The notes beneath the pieces were generated by a model that made no database searches, was not told the origin of the DNA, and worked only from the letters and a program-made list of their open reading frames with translations. A stretch of DNA of 18,138 nt from an uncultured archaeon (GTDB lineage Archaea; EX4484-52; JAADEF01), in contig CAYOWP010000006.1 of assembly GCA_964407715.1 (NCBI GenBank), positions 12,645-30,782 on the forward strand. The letters run 5' to 3'. Positions 1 to 17,787 of the stretch are shown here, in pieces (the stretch's first letter is position 1; every line of letters begins with the position of its first letter). Made by a program: the position numbers and the translations under genes.

Positions 1-83
1 CTTTTAAAATCATCCTTTCGTCATAGCTCATAACATACTCCAAGTTATGAGCGCGGCGCTCTGACCAACTGAGCCACGTGGGC
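1..83 (-). tRNA. tRNA-Met(CAU), elongator type, intron-containing; only the 5' exon (46-83) and part of the intron (1-45) are in the window
   Basis: Minus strand reads GCCCACG TG GCTC AGTTGGTCA GAGC G CCGCG CT CAT A, then non-tRNA sequence. G1-C2-C3 fits archaeal elongator Met better than Ile2 or initiator Met. The 3' exon lies outside the window. Confidence 0.85.
7..34 (-). ncRNA. Putative intron-encoded box C'/D' guide for 2'-O-methylation of C34 of the host tRNA-Met
   Basis: GTTATGAGC (26-34) is antisense to GCUCAUAAC of the host anticodon arm. It is followed by T, D'-like ATGA (21-24), C-GAAA-G and C'-like ATGATT (8-13). The 5th nt upstream of D' pairs with C34. Confidence 0.65.
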
Positions 84-220
84 TCATCCAATAATACATT
101 TTAAATTATAATGATATTTTTAAATATTTTGAAATGGCGTCTTAACAATGCGCTACTTTTAAGTGAGAAAACAACATTTTTTAAATCTTTATGATTATTT
201 ATTGTTATGGGAGATAAAGT

Positions 221-769
221 ATGGAAATATATCGCATATCCACCATATATCAAAACCAAAATAGAGGAGAGATATCCAGGAAGATAAGTAAAGGAGGAAT
301 AAGAGAATATGCTCGTCTATACTACGAGATAGCTTCCAATTCTGATTTACCTAAGGACATTCGTAAAAAAGCATTAGAAAATGCAATTAACGGATATCTT
401 AAACATTTCGATATTTTTTATTCTTTTTATATATTAGAAGAAATAATAACCGGGAAAAATCATAGGATAAAGGATATATATGGTAATGATATTAAGGAAT
501 ATGCATCTTTTGGATTAATAGAAAAACTGAAAAATCTTTACTATGAAAACTTTAATAACAGTCCATTTCTTAAAATGGAGATATTAAAAATATTGAAGGA
601 AATAAAGGAGAACAACAGTTTTCCCGAAAACGCCAGAAAAAAAGCGGATAACGTATATAAAGAACTTAAACTTAAATTTGATAATGAAGTCAATGAGAAA
701 TATAGAGATAAAGAACATCTATATAACTCAATAATAAAGGAATTGGAATTATATGGCATAAAGAAATAA
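221..769 (+). CDS. Hypothetical protein, 182 aa, charged and probably alpha-helical
   Basis: Long ORF in AT-rich DNA filling the gap between two tRNA genes, with GGAG upstream of the ATG. No motif recognised. Confidence 0.7.
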   Translation: MEIYRISTIYQNQNRGEISRKISKGGIREYARLYYEIASNSDLPKDIRKKALENAINGYLKHFDIFYSFYILEEIITGKNHRIKDIYGNDIKEYASFGLIEKLKNLYYENFNNSPFLKMEILKILKEIKENNSFPENARKKADNVYKELKLKFDNEVNEKYRDKEHLYNSIIKELELYGIKK

Positions 770-774
770 AAAAG

Positions 775-893
775 TGGTCCCGGAGGGATTCGAACCCTCG
801 ACCTCCGGCTCGCTTCGGATTGGGAGGAAATTTGCGCATATACCTCCCAAGGCCCTATAAGACCGGCGCTCTGCCAAGCTGAGCCACGGGACC
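775..893 (-). tRNA. tRNA-Ile(UAU) with 45-nt intron at 37/38 (intron 811-855)
   Basis: GGTCCCG/CGGGACC acceptor stem, A73, GCTC/GAGC D stem, CCGGT CT TAT A|A GCCGG anticodon arm, GAGGG TTCGAAT CCCTC T arm. Intron hairpin TTGGGAGG/CCTCCCAA and a relaxed BHB. CCA not encoded. Confidence 0.9.
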
Positions 894-941
894 ATCATTA
901 AAATAATATAAACATTATTTAAAATTTAAAAATGATATTTT

Positions 942-1121
942 TTATCTCACAACCTCTATAGGTATTACGCCCATCTCAAATTCTTTTTTAGCAATAGAAA
1001 CAGGATCTAACACATTAACTCCTTCAAGCTTTATTAATGGTGGAGCGCCCATAGAAATTTGCATTGCTCTTGCACCTATAATTCGCGCTCTTTCATACTT
1101 CGTATATTTTTGAGAACTCAT
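942..1121 (-). CDS. rpoK: RNA polymerase subunit K (Rpo6), 59 aa; not in the supplied ORF track
   Basis: Manual translation [59 protein letters not shown] has the Rpo6 T.YE.AR..GARA.Q motif. SD GGAGGTG upstream; follows rpoN. Confidence 0.96.
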
Positions 1122-1151
1122 CCTTTTACACCTCCAAAGATAGCAACAAAA

Positions 1152-1376
1152 CTATTTCTTTTCCTTTATAGGTATTATCTTATTTCTGAAGATAGCGATC
1201 TCATCAAAAACATCAACATAAGTTAAAAAGTGCTTTCTGCAACAATATCTCTTTACACCTAACTCATCCAACACCTCTCCTGGAGGTCTCCCTTTCTTAT
1301 TTACCTCTTCATTATATTTTTCCCATAAATGACCTATAACCTTTCCACATGAAATGCATCTTACTGGGAATAGCAT
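1152..1376 (-). CDS. rpoN: RNA polymerase subunit N (Rpo10)
   Basis: PVRCISCGK and RYCCR zinc motifs. Start moved to the ATG at 1376 because the track's GTG lies inside the SD GGAGGTG. Confidence 0.97.
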   Translation of the reverse strand: MLFPVRCISCGKVIGHLWEKYNEEVNKKGRPPGEVLDELGVKRYCCRKHFLTYVDVFDEIAIFRNKIIPIKEKK

Positions 1377-1409
1377 ATTAAGCACCTCCTTATAAGAATA
1401 GGTATTTGG

Positions 1410-1916
1410 TTATCTTTTACTTAATTGCTTCTTTCTTCTTGGTCCTTGCTTTGATCTCGATGGCTTATGAGGCTCGGTTTGTCTAACGTCAGGAACAAGT
1501 AAGGATCTATCATAATCTATAAACATTTCCTTTAAAGCATCATCCTTATAATACTCTACAAGTGCTTTAGCAATAATTTGTCTTACAGCATCACTTTGAC
1601 CTGTTATTCCACCACCGTGAACATCAATCTCTATAGAGATATTTTTCATTTTATCCTCCCCAGCTAAATATACTGGCTCTAATATCCTATAAAGAAGTAG
1701 TTTTGGAAAATATGATTCTAATGGTTTTCCATTAACCCTAATACTACCATTCCCTTTCCTAATATAGCCTCTTGCGATTGCCTTTTTTCTATACCCAATA
1801 ATCACTAATGTCTCCTGTTTTTTTGATGTCTGCTTAGTTTTTTTAGATGTGCTTCTTGCCCTTTTAACATTCTTCTTATCTTTTTTCTTTGAAACATCTT
1901 TCTTTTTCCTGCTCAT
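1410..1916 (-). CDS. rps9: 30S ribosomal protein S9 (uS9) with Lys-rich N-terminal extension
   Basis: G.RK.AIAR, IRVNG, VHGGGITGQSDAVR and DRSLLV.D.R..EP motifs; conserved synteny. Confidence 0.97.
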   Translation of the reverse strand: MSRKKKDVSKKKDKKNVKRARSTSKKTKQTSKKQETLVIIGYRKKAIARGYIRKGNGSIRVNGKPLESYFPKLLLYRILEPVYLAGEDKMKNISIEIDVHGGGITGQSDAVRQIIAKALVEYYKDDALKEMFIDYDRSLLVPDVRQTEPHKPSRSKQGPRRKKQLSKR

Positions 1917-1927
1917 TTGTTCTCACC

Positions 1928-2365
1928 TTATTTTGCACTATCTTGGATATTAGCACCTAAATGTTTTGATACCTCTTCAAGATATACATACTTCATGTTT
2001 TTCAAATTATTTTTTGAGAACATTTCCAATCTAATGAACTCTTTGTCTTTGTATTCCTTTGGAATACCAATAAATGTTTTAATCCTTCTTAAAGCCTCTC
2101 TCCCTCTTTTTGTCTTATATGGTAACATACCTCGAATTGTCCTTCTCACAATTCTATCAGGGTATCTTGGATAAAAAGGTCCTTTGTATCTATCTCCCCT
2201 TTCTCTCTTAGCTTCATATCTTTCCAAGATATTTTCGCGGTTACCTGAGATAACACATTTTTCGCAGTTTACTATGATGATCTCTTCCCCTTCTAATGCC
2301 TTCTTAGCGATATAACTAGCCATCCTACCTAATATAGTATCTGAGGCATCTATATATAATGTCAT
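1928..2365 (-). CDS. rpl13: 50S ribosomal protein L13 (uL13)
   Basis: IDA...ILGRMAS, GPFYPRYPDRIVRRTIRGMLP. Start placed at the ATG at 2365, downstream of SD AGGTG. Confidence 0.97.
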   Translation of the reverse strand: MTLYIDASDTILGRMASYIAKKALEGEEIIIVNCEKCVISGNRENILERYEAKRERGDRYKGPFYPRYPDRIVRRTIRGMLPYKTKRGREALRRIKTFIGIPKEYKDKEFIRLEMFSKNNLKNMKYVYLEEVSKHLGANIQDSAK

Positions 2366-2377
2366 CTTATACACCTA

Positions 2378-2743
2378 TTACTCCATTATTCTTATGTTTT
2401 TTCCTTCTTTGTTTATTTTCACTAATTCCTCAAAAGATATTATTTTTCCTCCTGCCAATTTAACTTTATTCAAAGCATTTTTTGAACATGATAAAGCTGC
2501 AATGATTAATGGCTTTTCCAATATCCCATAACCCAAAACCTTTCCAGGAACTGCAATGAATTCTCCCTCTTTGCCATATCTATTTATTTTTATTAGGTTA
2601 ACACTAGATCTTTGCCTTCTTGGTCTCATTAATCTTTCTGCTAAGTCCTTCCATACCTTCTTCTTAGTTTTTCTATATGTCTTCTCTAAAATAGCTATCT
2701 GCTTTCTTGTTACTGGATTTGTTGGTCCTGTTCTCACTACCAT
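2378..2743 (-). CDS. rpl18e: 50S ribosomal protein L18e (eL18)
   Basis: TNP, W..LAE.L.RPRR, VNL.KINR and VPGKVLG motifs; synteny. Confidence 0.96.
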   Translation of the reverse strand: MVVRTGPTNPVTRKQIAILEKTYRKTKKKVWKDLAERLMRPRRQRSSVNLIKINRYGKEGEFIAVPGKVLGYGILEKPLIIAALSCSKNALNKVKLAGGKIISFEELVKINKEGKNIRIME

Positions 2744-2774
2744 CTCGCATCACTTTACGATAAATTGGTTATGA

Positions 2775-2907
2775 TGCAGGGGGCGGGATTCGAACCCGCG
2801 AAGGCACTAAGCCACAGGATTTCTTATGAAATCATTGCTTAAGCTCATAACTTAAGATGCATTTCATCTTAAGTCCTGCCCCATTGACCAGGCTAGGGGA
2901 CCCCTGC
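2775..2907 (-). tRNA. tRNA-Leu(UAA) with 47-nt intron at 37/38 (intron 2821-2867)
   Basis: GCAGGGG/CCCCTGC acceptor stem, A73, CAGGA CT TAA G|A TCCTG anticodon arm, long variable arm, TTCGAAT T loop. Strict BHB (CUUA/UAAG central helix, UGAAAU/AUUUCA outer helix). Usual archaeal position between rpoD and rpl18e. Confidence 0.95.
2829..2859 (-). ncRNA. Putative intron-encoded box C'/D' guide for 2'-O-methylation of U34 of the host tRNA-Leu
   Basis: CATCTTAAGT (2850-2859) is antisense to ACUUAAGAUG of the host pre-tRNA. It is followed by T, ATGA (2845-2848), GC-TTAA-GC-A and ATGATT (2830-2835). D'+5 pairs with U34; same layout as the Met intron. Confidence 0.55.
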
Positions 2908-11800: not shown

Positions 11801-14443
11801 ATTTCCACCTACAGTTACTTCAACTGTAGCTGTAGGATCATCAACTGTACCTGTCAATTGAGGAGTATTATCATTGATAATTAAAGTGTTAATAGTTACT
11901 ACTGGTGCTTTAGTATCTACAGTAACCGTTTTACTTGTATCTGTTACTGAATTTCCAGCCTTATCAGTGATAACTACTTCTATTGTATAAACTCCATCGC
12001 TAACTAAATTTTCATTGTCATCTTTTCCATCCCAAATTTTTGAGATTGAACTGGTTTCAGTTCCAGTCCAAGATTTAACAGTATTACCTTCGCCATCTTT
12101 AATACTAATTGTATAATCCACTGCCTCGGAAAATTCTAAATTAATAGTTGCAGTATCTTTTACTCCATCATTATTAGGTGAAAAGATAGGATTATCTATA
12201 GTATAAGTTGTAATTTCTGGAGGAGTATTATCTACAGTAACAGAAATAGCACTAGATGTTAGCGAGTTCCCTGCTTTATCAATTGCCACAGCAGTTAGAG
12301 AATAAGTACCGTCTTTAACTTTTGTTGTATCCCAATCTATAGAATATGGCGAATCTGCATCTTCTCCTATTTTTGTATTCTCATAATAAAACTCAACTTT
12401 TGCTATTCCAGAACCACCATTATTGTCCTTTGCGTCTGCTTGTATGGTAATTTTTCCTTTTACGTAGTCATCATTTGAAGGACTTGTTATTTTTATAGTT
12501 ATTGGTTTTGTTTTATCAATTTTAACTGTGAAAGTGCCAACATCTGAAGGGTTACCAGCGTTATCCCAAGCCTGATATCTTATAACCTTTATTCCATCAT
12601 CCGAAAAAGTTAATTGATATGGAGAATAAAGAACAGTACCTTGTGAAACATCGCAAGATTCGCCCTCGCAATATTTAACCTCTTTTATTTTACTATCTCC
12701 TTCATCGTGTGGTGACAAAGATACTGTCTGCTCAGAGTTAACCCAAATTCCATCATATATATAATCATCAGAAATTGTTGGAGCAATTTTATCAACTCTA
12801 AATTCAACCGGTCCTGCTGTAGCAGAATTTCCTACATTGTCTTCTCCATAAGCACAAACCCATTGGTGAGAAGAAATTTTCACTGAAGTACCAACAGTAT
12901 ATTCTGAAGCATCACCAGGACAGGTTCCGGGATCTGAATCATAAAGTTTATAACCAATTGTATTTGAATTACATCCGCTTTCTCCATTACCATCTTCGCA
13001 AGAAATTTGAGCTATTCGATCCACATTTACCCAATCATCAGGATTGCCAGAAATTGAAATTGACGGAGCATTTTTATCTACTACCACATTAACTGCTGCC
13101 CCCTTTCCTGTATTCTCAACATAATCTGTCGCTCTAAAGTTAATTGAGGTAGCGCCAGAAGTATCAACATTTTCTGCTTTGCAAAGATGGTTTTCAGAAT
13201 CATACTCTGCGAAATTCCAATTTATTCCACCATCTAAAGTATATTCACAACTCGCTACTCCAGAGCCATCTCCATCATTTACTGAGGCAGAGATAGTGGA
13301 AGTACCAGAAATATAGAGATTTGTACCATCAGAATAAGATGGTTCTATCTGGATATTTTCAATTGTTGGTCCGCTGTTATCAACATAAACGGATAATGTT
13401 TTCGCATTTTCCACATTTCCAGCTTTGTCCTCGCTCCAATAAGTAATCGTATGAGGACCTTCGCTGGAAATGGTTATTGGATTAGAGTAGAGTTGATCAT
13501 CTCCGTTATCTATTTTGTAATAAGTTACCTGAACTCCTGAACCCTCATCTTCTGCACTTAGGGTGATTTGAGTTGAGGAGGTTATATAAGTTGGATTTGT
13601 ACCATATTTCGGGTCTCCAACACTAACCTCAGTTACTGGTGCTTTTTTATCGATTTTGATAACTCCTGAAGTTTTAGTGTTTTCTGTATTGTCAACATTA
13701 TCGATAGAATAGTACTTTATTGTATACTTGCAAACAGAATCTTTTGAGCAAGTTATGGGTATAGAAATACTATTTCCTGTTCCTATTTGTTCATTACCGC
13801 AATTTTCTCCGTTTTCATCGCAGATTTGATAATGAATTTCTTTGCAATCGGAACCTATATCACCGTCATTGCAAGTTAAAGTAACGGTAACATCAGAATT
13901 CTGCCATTCTGTTGGAGCATTATCTGAGGTTGTTGGTGGAGTAACATCAACTGTAGTTGTAGCATCGGTATTGGTAGAGGAACCCCCTGCATTATCATAT
14001 GTAGTCACAATCCAAGTTACTACAGTATCTTGAGATAATCCACTTGCAGAAGCAGCATCAAAAGAAACCTCAGCTGAGCTACCTTTTTCAATGTATTGTG
14101 GGTCTGTAAAATCATATAAACACTTAGCTAATTTATTTATTGAATCATAAATAGGTATCCAATTTAATGGACATTGTAGATTGCCACTGTAAGCAATAGT
14201 ACCATCTTCTGGAAACTTTATTACAATTCCCTTTAATTTATCATCTCCATTATTTGTTACCGTAAAAGTGTATGTCTTCGTGACTTCGCCTTGGACGTAT
14301 TGTGGAGAGACTGTCACGCTTGCGGTATGGGTTGCGAAGGCAGGAAGGATACAAAGAGCCATGAAGAATAATGACAAGACAAACAATGACTTTGACACTC
14401 CTACAGAATTTATTATCAAGTTTTTTATGGATGTTTTTTGCAT
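8873..14443 (-). CDS. Giant secreted/surface protein, 1856 aa, with multiple Ig-like domains and a right-handed beta-helix
   Basis: Signal peptide and SD GGAGGTG. Repeated D.AGN...VD.T.P Ig-like units, FSPNNDG (FlgD-Ig-like), TSIQAAIDAA..GDTI.V..GTY.E beta-helix start ending VDYDPWL, SbsA-type Ig unit, duplicated PGWNLI...G.GYWI C-terminus. Confidence 0.9.
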   Translation of the reverse strand: MQKTSIKNLIINSVGVSKSLFVLSLFFMALCILPAFATHTASVTVSPQYVQGEVTKTYTFTVTNNGDDKLKGIVIKFPEDGTIAYSGNLQCPLNWIPIYDSINKLAKCLYDFTDPQYIEKGSSAEVSFDAASASGLSQDTVVTWIVTTYDNAGGSSTNTDATTTVDVTPPTTSDNAPTEWQNSDVTVTLTCNDGDIGSDCKEIHYQICDENGENCGNEQIGTGNSISIPITCSKDSVCKYTIKYYSIDNVDNTENTKTSGVIKIDKKAPVTEVSVGDPKYGTNPTYITSSTQITLSAEDEGSGVQVTYYKIDNGDDQLYSNPITISSEGPHTITYWSEDKAGNVENAKTLSVYVDNSGPTIENIQIEPSYSDGTNLYISGTSTISASVNDGDGSGVASCEYTLDGGINWNFAEYDSENHLCKAENVDTSGATSINFRATDYVENTGKGAAVNVVVDKNAPSISISGNPDDWVNVDRIAQISCEDGNGESGCNSNTIGYKLYDSDPGTCPGDASEYTVGTSVKISSHQWVCAYGEDNVGNSATAGPVEFRVDKIAPTISDDYIYDGIWVNSEQTVSLSPHDEGDSKIKEVKYCEGESCDVSQGTVLYSPYQLTFSDDGIKVIRYQAWDNAGNPSDVGTFTVKIDKTKPITIKITSPSNDDYVKGKITIQADAKDNNGGSGIAKVEFYYENTKIGEDADSPYSIDWDTTKVKDGTYSLTAVAIDKAGNSLTSSAISVTVDNTPPEITTYTIDNPIFSPNNDGVKDTATINLEFSEAVDYTISIKDGEGNTVKSWTGTETSSISKIWDGKDDNENLVSDGVYTIEVVITDKAGNSVTDTSKTVTVDTKAPVVTINTLIINDNTPQLTGTVDDPTATVEVTVGGNTYAATNNGDGTWTADVTDELSDGTYDVSVTATDQAGNIGNDDTSNELTVDTQKPTITNFDEPKNDKVYKGNVPLRFTPHDTGTAVTCSYKIDNNDPASVDCQRDMQVDTTITGLSDGRHHLTLTVTDAAGNSVSDSVSFVVDLDNSLTVGPSGADFTSIQAAIDAASEGDTIEVADGTYDEQIIISKPLTIQGQGDTTIIKPSQTTADNFQLFSRKPGGSDNTAPIVVANADATIKNLKIDGSEVSSVPSGDTMFVGILYRGVNGIIDSVTVEGINIADGNAIYLSSMGNNVNVEVKGSTISNFYKNGITANYEGLTVNIHDNTIIGSGPRDDVAQNGIQIGYGATGSVVENMVSDIAYTGAGWIATGILFVDSSGNARNNIVTNCQAGIVAQAGWYPPVTCDVTIENNTIDASGLTSLSYIAGTGAVTWDENAAITVTIKNNDLTGAGYGEGISIGSEYGDGTVDATIEGNDISNWGHGIWLGPTSNQIVITNNNIINNVEVDSGIHIVGVDVSCIKINFNNIEGNAAYGVYNDGSGILDAEFNYWGCADGPGSEGCDAVSENVDYDPWLKASKDDAPVRENGAPTGYVNTDTLTLSLTTDRPATCKYSETEGTEYDSMEGTFNTDDGLYHYVELSNLKEGKYTYYVKCKSEIDGEPVNSEDYVISFTVDLTPPTILERSPGINAVGVDPTTNIMVKFSEEVKCTLGSWENCISVIDSTGNSIEGIVTYSTDTLTFDPTNNLDSNTEFRVTLTGITDLAENELGDTEWSFITATYYSIELTPGWNLISIPTVPGDTSIDAVLGDAKNAIDSVWTYDAVNDEWYVYHPDSPETSNLDTMTAGYGYWISATEEAVIEGYGSLFKEKETPPQRVLKPGWNLIGYYQKPGEDESPVYCALSSLIKYECISIPNLNEEECIIDISEKYWTTLVTYDNYKKTFEEVTPDDYMIPGKGYWIFMKSSDIGETYMYGPGDICD

Positions 14444-17715: not shown

Positions 17716-17787
17716 TAGCCCCGCCAGGATTCGAACCTGGGTCGCAGGGTCCAGAGCCCTGCATGATTACCACTACACCACGGGGCT
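17716..17787 (-). tRNA. tRNA-Gln(CUG), no intron
   Basis: AGCCCCG/CGGGGCT acceptor stem with the archaeal A1-U72 pair, CAGGG CT CTG GA CCCTG anticodon arm, CCAGG TTCGAAT CCTGG T arm. Confidence 0.96.

Follow-up and report, generated by a model that had tools for sequence, protein, structure and literature searches.

The locus described here raises the question of what an intron may do for the tRNA that carries it. The window, by which we mean the whole 18,138-nucleotide (nt) stretch of DNA analysed, lies on contig CAYOWP010000006.1 (C6 in our numbering; positions 12,645 to 30,782, forward strand) of an uncultured archaeon, whose assembly (GCA_964407715.1, here G000) comprises 0.9 Mb in 16 contigs at 32% G+C. 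A first-pass annotation had noted that two tRNA introns in the window share one order of elements, and had read them as guides that direct ribose methylation to the wobble nucleotide of their own host tRNA in the manner of box C/D small RNAs (sRNAs). Both introns, in tRNA-Met(CAU) and tRNA-Leu(UAA), are present on the minus strand with the module in the order described, and each carries a 9-nt antisense segment that is a perfect complement to positions 31-39 of its own tRNA; this observation is confirmed as real and beyond chance. On the strength of the sequence comparisons set out below, we consider it likely that each of four introns of this genome is a minimal C/D-type methylation guide residing inside its own target gene and aimed at nt 34. 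The two introns of the window are built as follows.

46-83, minus strand: 5′ exon of elongator tRNA-Met(CAU), positions 1-37, with position 1 at 83 and C34 at 49
1-45, minus strand: 5′ part of the tRNA-Met intron (37/38 position), starting at 45 and running into a 10-N gap
26-34, minus strand: Met guide, 9 nt antisense to host positions 31-39, with window position 29 opposite C34
25, minus strand: Met spacer nucleotide U between guide and box
21-24, minus strand: Met D-type box AUGA
15-20, minus strand: Met hairpin, a C-G pair closing a GAAA loop; putative canonical stem of a kink-turn (K-turn)
7-14, minus strand: Met 3-nt bulge GAU (14-12) followed by GAUUU (11-7), with the C-type box AUGAUU at 13-8
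2775-2907, minus strand: tRNA-Leu(UAA) gene, 5′ exon 2868-2907, 3′ exon 2775-2820, U34 at 2871
2821-2867, minus strand: tRNA-Leu(UAA) intron, 47 nt
2850-2858, minus strand: Leu(UAA) guide, 9 nt antisense to host positions 31-39 (intron nt 10-18)
2849, minus strand: Leu(UAA) spacer U
2845-2848, minus strand: Leu(UAA) D-type box AUGA
2837-2844, minus strand: Leu(UAA) 8-nt palindromic hairpin between the boxes
2829-2836, minus strand: Leu(UAA) bulge AAU (2836-2834) followed by GAUUU (2833-2829), with the C-type box AUGAUU at 2835-2830
2823-2826, minus strand: Leu(UAA) 4-nt segment pairing with host positions 32-35 (4/4 pairs), the central helix of the bulge-helix-bulge motif

The introns lie at position 37/38 of the targeted tRNA, beside the bulge-helix-bulge motif at which splicing takes place. 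The intron strand of the splice helix is a separate 4-nt segment, 2 nt from the intron 3′ end, and is not the guide; it forms 4/4 pairs in this genome's Leu(UAA), Leu(CAA) and Trp. The register of the Met guide is confirmed by pattern match and by orthologue alignment, the complete orthologous Met introns measuring 45-55 nt in relatives G001-G004. The intron-bearing tRNA-Met is the elongator, because the intron-less CAU tRNA of the genome is initiator-like, with A1 and three G-C pairs in the anticodon stem. The hairpins of this genome are very short (1 bp with GAAA, or 2 bp with UUAA), so that the case for their reality rests on relatives, among which the Leu(UAA) orthologue of G001 has a different 9-nt hairpin in the same place.

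A scaffold gap of 10 N immediately beyond the window start (contig C6, ~12635-12644) interrupts the tRNA-Met gene, and the 3′ part of its intron and its 3′ exon are absent from the assembly. ARAGORN calls this tRNA-Met(CAU) with its 5′ exon and first 45 intron nt at window 83-1 on the minus strand, and gives it an 82-nt 'intron'; beyond the gap follows the 3′ part of a different tRNA, with an anticodon arm reading GAC, and the call is therefore a chimera. Contigs of two DNA sequencing runs span window 1-300 and extend beyond the window start; a search for runs that contain the locus listed none from RNA. A second artefact of the same type lies on contig C2 (53789-53875).

Does the shared module extend beyond these two genes, and could it arise by chance? 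ARAGORN was run genome-wide in intron mode and leaves nine intron-bearing tRNAs, a tenth call, on C2, being discounted for spanning an N gap. Four of the nine carry the module, namely Met, Leu(UAA), Leu(CAA) and Trp(CCA), in keeping with the earlier proposal that one module had been reused on several tRNAs. The Leu(CAA) gene, on contig C10, was miscalled 'Ile gat' by ARAGORN and is matched as a tRNA by Rfam; its intron bears 9 nt antisense to positions 31-39 followed by the same boxes as Leu(UAA), and the guides of the two leucine introns differ exactly opposite nt 34. The Trp(CCA) intron carries 6 nt antisense to positions 31-36, again followed by the same boxes. An antisense search of each of the Phe, Thr, Ile(UAU), Tyr and Lys introns found no module. 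When each intron was shuffled 3000 times, with its last 8 nt excluded, and scored for the length of Watson-Crick antisense, 9 nt were reached in 7/3000 shuffles for Leu(UAA) and in 1/3000 for Leu(CAA). The 6 nt of Trp were reached in 211/3000, which is not significant alone, and the 4-6 nt found in the five introns that lack the module were reached in 352-2767/3000. The gap-cut Met intron of G000 was left out of the shuffle, register and folding analyses.

Evidence for our proposal comes from orthologous introns, which were gathered by similarity of the whole gene or of its 5′ part (exon) with intron content unused, and were extracted by anticodon stem and splice helix only. The module is found in 24 of 33 such introns: 12/13 for Leu(CAA), 3/10 for Leu(UAA), 4/4 for Met and 5/6 for Trp. 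One locus with a spurious A/T-only 'stem' (L006) was dropped from the register, pairing, extension and folding counts, and two introns (L054, Trp of G031; L060, Met of G008) were dropped by the extraction filter, though both show the module. In all 24 module introns the longest antisense spans nt 34, the start of xUGA lies exactly 5 nt 3′ of the base facing nt 34, and AUGA appears 7-19 nt after xUGA; in each, a guide of 7-9 bp lies 5′ of the D-type box with a plausible site of 2′-O-methylation (Nm) as its fifth paired nucleotide. With host position p pairing with guide nt p minus 29, positions 31-36 are paired in 24/24, position 37 in 21/24, position 38 in 20/24 and position 39 in 10/24, and across the four tRNA identities there are changes on both sides at 31, 34, 35, 36 and 37. 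Guide and anticodon arm thus covary with the +5 register fixed on nt 34, as the first-pass annotation had anticipated. The nine introns that lack the module are seven Leu(UAA) introns of 23-33 nt, one distant Leu(CAA) intron, and a classical Trp intron (G047). One of these short introns, 33 nt long and from the Leu(UAA) gene of the sister genus (L009, G002), looks like a decayed guide-plus-box region, and this resemblance to a decayed copy suggests that the module was lost recently there. Two further features of the orthologues concern the Leu(CAA) genes of one family (L026, L031 and L032, from G027, G041 and G037), which have a second intron of ~40 nt in the D-arm region besides the 37/38 intron that bears the module; the D-type box in the introns of these three loci is the canonical CUGA.

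The module is widely distributed. Exact patterns, with reversed-pattern controls, were scanned over 42 genomes of the phylum and gave matches to the Met module in 26 genomes and to the Trp and Leu modules in 16 each (controls for Met, Trp and Leu 0, 1 and 0 genomes, respectively). The Met module is spread over 6 of the 8 families of the phylum, and the Leu(UAA) module is restricted to this genus in the same scan. Public species genomes were scanned with a single Leu pattern in which the register was fixed and the match at nt 34 left free; this set cannot test the register, because the pattern fixed it. The pattern yielded 115 loci, where ~20 chance matches had been estimated beforehand. A tRNA filter was passed by 97 of these (96 distinct introns) and failed by 18, among them two loci with archaeal labels (L072 and L129, the latter at a contig end). 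A Watson-Crick partner faces nt 34 in 96/96 tRNA-like introns (57 U:A, 39 C:G), compared with 10/18 of the non-tRNA matches. A U opposite A38 occurs in only 38/96 of the Leu introns, so that the usual Leu duplex is 7 bp. Labels are known for 80 of the 115 loci, 67 of which pass the tRNA filter. Among the matches listed, these read Aenigmatarchaeota (20), Woesearchaeota (9), Nanohal(o)archaeota (6), Nanobdellati (4), Undinarchaeota (2), Micrarchaeota (2), Nanoarchaeota/-ia (2), Pacearchaeota (1), 'uncultured Methanosarcinales' (5), plain 'archaeon' (15) and plain 'bacterium' (1); specific bacterial labels number 11 among the matches listed, and all of these fail the tRNA filter. The Leu module carriers among the matches listed are nearly all DPANN-labelled. 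The module had at first been ascribed to this lineage; it is indeed present here, but is not special to it, occurring under many DPANN labels among the matches listed.

This breadth bears on the possibility that the modules are non-functional remnants of intronic C/D sRNAs, or the product of splice-motif constraint and chance. The decayed appearance of the 33-nt Leu(UAA) intron of G002 fits that view, as does the UGA that the splice-motif strand itself supplies in Met and Leu(CAA). It is difficult to reconcile with a Met module in 6/8 families of the phylum and a Leu module under many DPANN labels, with compensatory change in both guide and hairpin, and with a guide that is distinct from the splice-motif strand. 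We regard it as extremely improbable.

What structure would these elements form? The layout xUGA, stem or loop, RAU, GAU is invariant in the modules, and by the usual scheme of tandem G·A pairs the boxes are able to form a K-turn. Where the spacer of a Leu intron measures at least 9 nt, it closes with 3 bp or more that directly abut the D-type box and the bulge in 46/63 cases, compared with 7.6% of shuffles; spacers below 9 nt form plain loops. Pairing between box-C position 6 and the first base of xUGA occurs in 68/95 Leu introns (permuted mean 40.6, with 0/10000 permutations reaching that count) and in 10/24 Met introns. Of the earlier claim that the boxes carry a compensatory A-U for C-G pair, it therefore stands that such pairing is frequent, but not that it is universal. 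The Met structure was examined by scoring its proposed pairs in a MAFFT alignment of 25 introns: pairing holds in 93.6% of cells, compared with 82.1% in shuffles (0/500) and 31.8-48.4% when the partners are slid. All of the hairpin pairs (5/5) have changed on both sides, the stem is longer in relatives, and the pair of position 31 with the guide alternates between A-U and G-C. RNAalifold, given no hints, predicts both the helix of anticodon loop and guide and the hairpin, the first helix reaching intron nt 1, which covaries with the guide.

Two other assignments of the boxes were considered and rejected. A second, terminal C/D pair might be drawn from the UGA of the splice strand in Met and Leu(CAA), 8-12 nt after the C-type box; judged by eye only, this UGA has no partner box, and it is absent in Leu(UAA) and Trp. 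The reversed assignment, with the first box C-type and the second D-type, was rejected because a covarying stem sits between the boxes, flush with both.

The proteins that such a guide would need are encoded in the genome: fibrillarin (220 bits), Nop5 (141-143 bits) and L7Ae (93 bits), as the first-pass annotation had asked to be confirmed. Nop5 aligns with residues 120-374 of the P. furiosus Nop5 chain 3nvk_A, a span that we take to include the coiled-coil region. The fibrillarin and Nop5 genes lie ~16 kb apart on contig C4 (61842-62474 and 78126-78572), and the initiator-like tRNA is directly upstream of the fibrillarin gene. A strict scan of the genome for C/D sRNAs (RUGAUGA...CUGA) gave one dubious match. 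A relaxed scan that used the box variants of the introns in canonical order gave 7 candidates, compared with 0 in the reversed sequence. A genome-wide search with the box motif alone (88 matches compared with 30-45 in shuffles) was too unspecific to reveal separate single-K-turn guides and was dropped. The candidates are distributed as follows.

Contig C3, 57990-58043 and 58086-58134 (locus L224): free-standing double-guide C/D sRNA candidates, ~40 nt apart
Contig C6, 24464-24518 (window 11820-11874), minus strand: sRNA candidate
Contigs C4 and C14: other sRNA candidates

The two C3 candidates have the order AUGAUUA, 12-nt guide, AUGA, 3-7-nt loop, RUGAUUA, 12-13-nt guide, AUGA, with terminal stems. 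They are kept as isolated 55-67-nt islands in three families, in which boxes and guides are invariant and the flanks are not. Because conserved free-standing sRNAs carry these boxes, the genuine C/D sRNAs of the lineage, as predicted from such conservation, use AUGAUUA/AUGA, in which C-box G6 has become U and D-box C1 has become A, the double change that the first-pass annotation had proposed. The earlier suggestion that AUGA/AUGAUU is this lineage's version of CUGA/RUGAUGA is thus upheld. In a target search with the sRNA guides several cores proved AT-rich, and the small and large subunit rRNAs (SSU and LSU) that might hold their targets are both not found in G000 despite its 92% marker completeness. 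With Rfam at E up to 1, the four intron loci and the free-standing sRNA locus match no family besides tRNA.

We propose the following model for the four introns. From 5′ to 3′, each consists of a short linker, a guide of 7-9 nt to host positions 31-37 (up to 39), one spacer nucleotide, the xUGA D-type box, a hairpin or short loop, the RAU bulge and the C-type box, in which GAU is followed by a base frequently paired with the x of xUGA, and a tail that closes with the 4-nt strand for the splice motif. The D-before-C order with an intervening hairpin is a circular permutation of the normal terminal C/D motif, in which a hairpin now caps the terminal stem and a single guide is retained. The two boxes would form one K-turn, to which L7Ae would bind and Nop5-fibrillarin would then be joined. 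While the pre-tRNA is still unspliced, the guide would pair with its anticodon loop, in the simplest case as a cis hairpin, placing nt 34 in the duplex 5 nt upstream of the D-type box, where fibrillarin would methylate its 2′-OH. The expected products are Cm34 in Met, Trp and Leu(CAA) and Um34 in Leu(UAA). The RNA would then refold into the bulge-helix-bulge form and be spliced.

Whether the guide acts before or after excision may be judged from folding and from the extent of complementarity. Folding the isolated anticodon arm with its intron, in a 37 °C model and with no proteins, places the cis helix of guide and anticodon in the predicted minimum free energy (MFE) structure in 21/24 introns, and the guide fold is more stable than the splice-competent fold in 24/24 (median -4.9 kcal/mol). 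The same guide might instead become active only after excision, probably as a circular intron acting in trans on spliced tRNA or on another pre-tRNA. The H. volcanii Trp intron is reported to act in trans or as the excised intron in the accessible parts of PMC7994747, PMC4090602 and PMC11408192. Action after excision would also suit the complementarity to mature positions 38 and 39 (20 and 10/24) and a Nop5 whose coiled-coil-aligned region would bridge two K-turns, possibly on two RNAs. However, the guide pairs equally well or better with intron nt 1 and 2 (22 and 15/24), two genomes have a U as intron nt 1 opposite an A of the guide, where the mature A38 would mismatch, and in 21/24 the ground state is predicted to be the cis helix. 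Because the complementarity into intron nt 1-2 at least matches that into 38-39, the substrate is probably the unspliced pre-tRNA, and activity confined to the excised intron appears unlikely.

Several observations weigh against a self-methylating intron and should be set beside it. The guides are short, at 7-9 bp with only 6 Watson-Crick bp in Trp, and the shuffle statistics overstate independence because the sequences are related. D-box position 1 does not pair with C-box position 6 in 27/95 of the Leu modules and 14/24 of those in Met. In this genome's own Leu(UAA), the MFE structure uses the intron-internal palindromic hairpin with 0/7 guide pairs, the guide fold lying 0.6 kcal/mol above it. 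In the sister genus the Leu(UAA) introns are short, and a search of its genomes, 74-85% complete, found the guide nowhere as a separate copy, so that the Leu(UAA) module is either dispensable or replaced by something unseen. Finally, inspection by eye of the four introns and their orthologues found one box pair per intron and no second K-turn, and archaeal C/D ribonucleoproteins (RNPs) normally require two juxtaposed motifs for efficient methylation.

A single K-turn, atypical for an active methylation RNP, would be less of a difficulty if the L7Ae-bound K-turn and the helix that masks the anticodon served to control folding, splicing order or other modifications, with no ribose methylation. 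Guide fold and splice-competent fold are in competition in 24/24, and a role as a timing switch is for this reason possible. Yet a mere helix needs no fixed 5-nt register, which is exact in 24/24; moreover, the four hosts are the reported nt-34 targets of Pyrococcus C/D sRNAs, and the boxes match those of the genome's true C/D sRNAs. We consider a masking role without methylation very unlikely, and the interpretation as nt-34 methylation to be supported by the register and covariation of the guides and by the outcome of all the computational checks that the first-pass annotation had called for.

How does the proposed guide relate to known systems? Cm34, or predicted C/D targeting of nt 34, is described for archaeal tRNAs in the parts of PMC7668247 and PMC7994747 available. 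In the latter, a 2021 review, three Pyrococcus species have four C/D sRNAs to nt 34 of Leu(CAA), Leu(UAA), Met and Trp, of which only the Trp guide is the intron of its target. The target tRNAs and the nucleotide are the same as here; in Pyrococcus, as far as that text goes, three of the four guides are separate trans genes of canonical two-K-turn form, whereas here all four lie inside their targets. The available text of PMC4090602 (2014) and PMC11408192 (2024) presents tRNA-Trp as the intron-nested C/D case, the former as a 'unique example'.

The euryarchaeal pre-tRNA-Trp intron (Haloferax volcanii, Pyrococcus sR50) is likewise a 37/38 intron of its own target, with antisense to the anticodon loop that sets C34 5 nt upstream of a D-type box, and with a bulge-helix-bulge motif alongside. 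It differs in being an entire sRNA, which has C, D′, C′ and D boxes together with guides for positions 34 and 39, whereas the module has one K-turn, one guide (for 34) and a D box followed by a C box via a hairpin, and is hosted not only by Trp but also by Leu(UAA), Leu(CAA) and Met. A classical intron of this kind occurs in the Trp gene of G047, from a distant family (L053): it is 63 nt long, with guides for 39 and 34, each followed by CUGA, the nt-34 guide preceding the terminal one. The module-type Trp introns showed neither a second box pair nor antisense to 38-43 for a position-39 guide. The genome's own free-standing C/D sRNAs have boxes identical to those of the introns (AUGAUUA/AUGA), but differ in their terminal stem, two K-turns, two 12-13-nt guides and non-intronic location.

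The nearest precedent outside Trp is the 66-nt intron carried by Nanoarchaeum equitans elongator tRNA-Met (Randau 2012; PMC3491384), described in the accessible text as yielding a stable C/D-like RNA with a GC hairpin at a time when tRNA-Trp introns alone were known to contain such an RNA. By its description alone, its layout sounds like the order of guide, D box, hairpin and C box seen here: box D follows the consensus, box C is a variant, and a GC hairpin is present. The same text names no target or register for it and reports it for Met only, the other three introns being considerably shorter. In the literature searched there is no description of C/D-type guides in tRNA-Leu introns, of a one-K-turn intronic design or of a DPANN-wide spread. 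Novelty is limited to hosts, architecture and breadth, because the mechanism is already known; within these limits the new hosts (both UUR leucine tRNAs, and Met beyond N. equitans), the permuted minimal architecture and the breadth appear new.

A more specific extension of this model, which we put forward tentatively and regard as possible rather than likely, is that DPANN archaea possess a hitherto unrecognised minimal C/D RNP with a single K-turn, whose guide is tethered by a short loop to its substrate and methylates the wobble ribose in cis before the refolding that permits splicing. The introns would then persist as guides, and may stem from circular or permuted guide RNAs inserted at their pairing site.

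The remainder of the window and its gene content may be summarised briefly. Rfam at its gathering score finds tRNA and no other family in the window, with three tRNA genes, of which those at 775-893 and 2775-2907 have long anticodon-loop insertions; ARAGORN identifies these two as tRNA-Ile(UAU) and tRNA-Leu(UAA), with introns of 45 and 47 nt, respectively. The two genes not yet listed are the following.

775-893, minus strand: tRNA-Ile(UAU), 45-nt intron, without module; longest antisense 4 nt (2219/3000 shuffles)
17716-17787: tRNA-Gln(CUG)

Only two CAU tRNAs, one initiator-like and one elongator, were found in the 92%-complete assembly, and the AUA codon may for that reason be read by the UAU tRNA instead of a modified CAU tRNA. 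Between the tRNA genes of the window lie RpoK, RpoN, S9, L13 and L18e, with an RpoD-like gene farther on. The segment 940-3564 (minus strand) is a conserved archaeal cluster of RpoD-like, tRNA-Leu, L18e, L13, S9, RpoN and RpoK genes, and the module-bearing tRNA-Leu is thus embedded in a row of ribosomal-protein and RNA-polymerase genes.

If our model is correct, it would say what four of this genome's nine tRNA introns are for, and likewise their counterparts in many DPANN-labelled genomes, and would provide one reason for the retention of such introns. The Trp intron would become one instance of a wider rule, in which the tRNAs that distinguish purine-ending codons (AUG, UGG, UUA/UUG) can each hold their own guide for wobble methylation. 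A natural fusion of substrate and guide with one K-turn would also offer a probe of the minimal RNA needed by the Nop5-fibrillarin-L7Ae particle. Furthermore, the shift of the C/D consensus to AUGAUUA/AUGA would be lineage-wide, and finders tuned to RUGAUGA/CUGA may overlook such sRNA genes.

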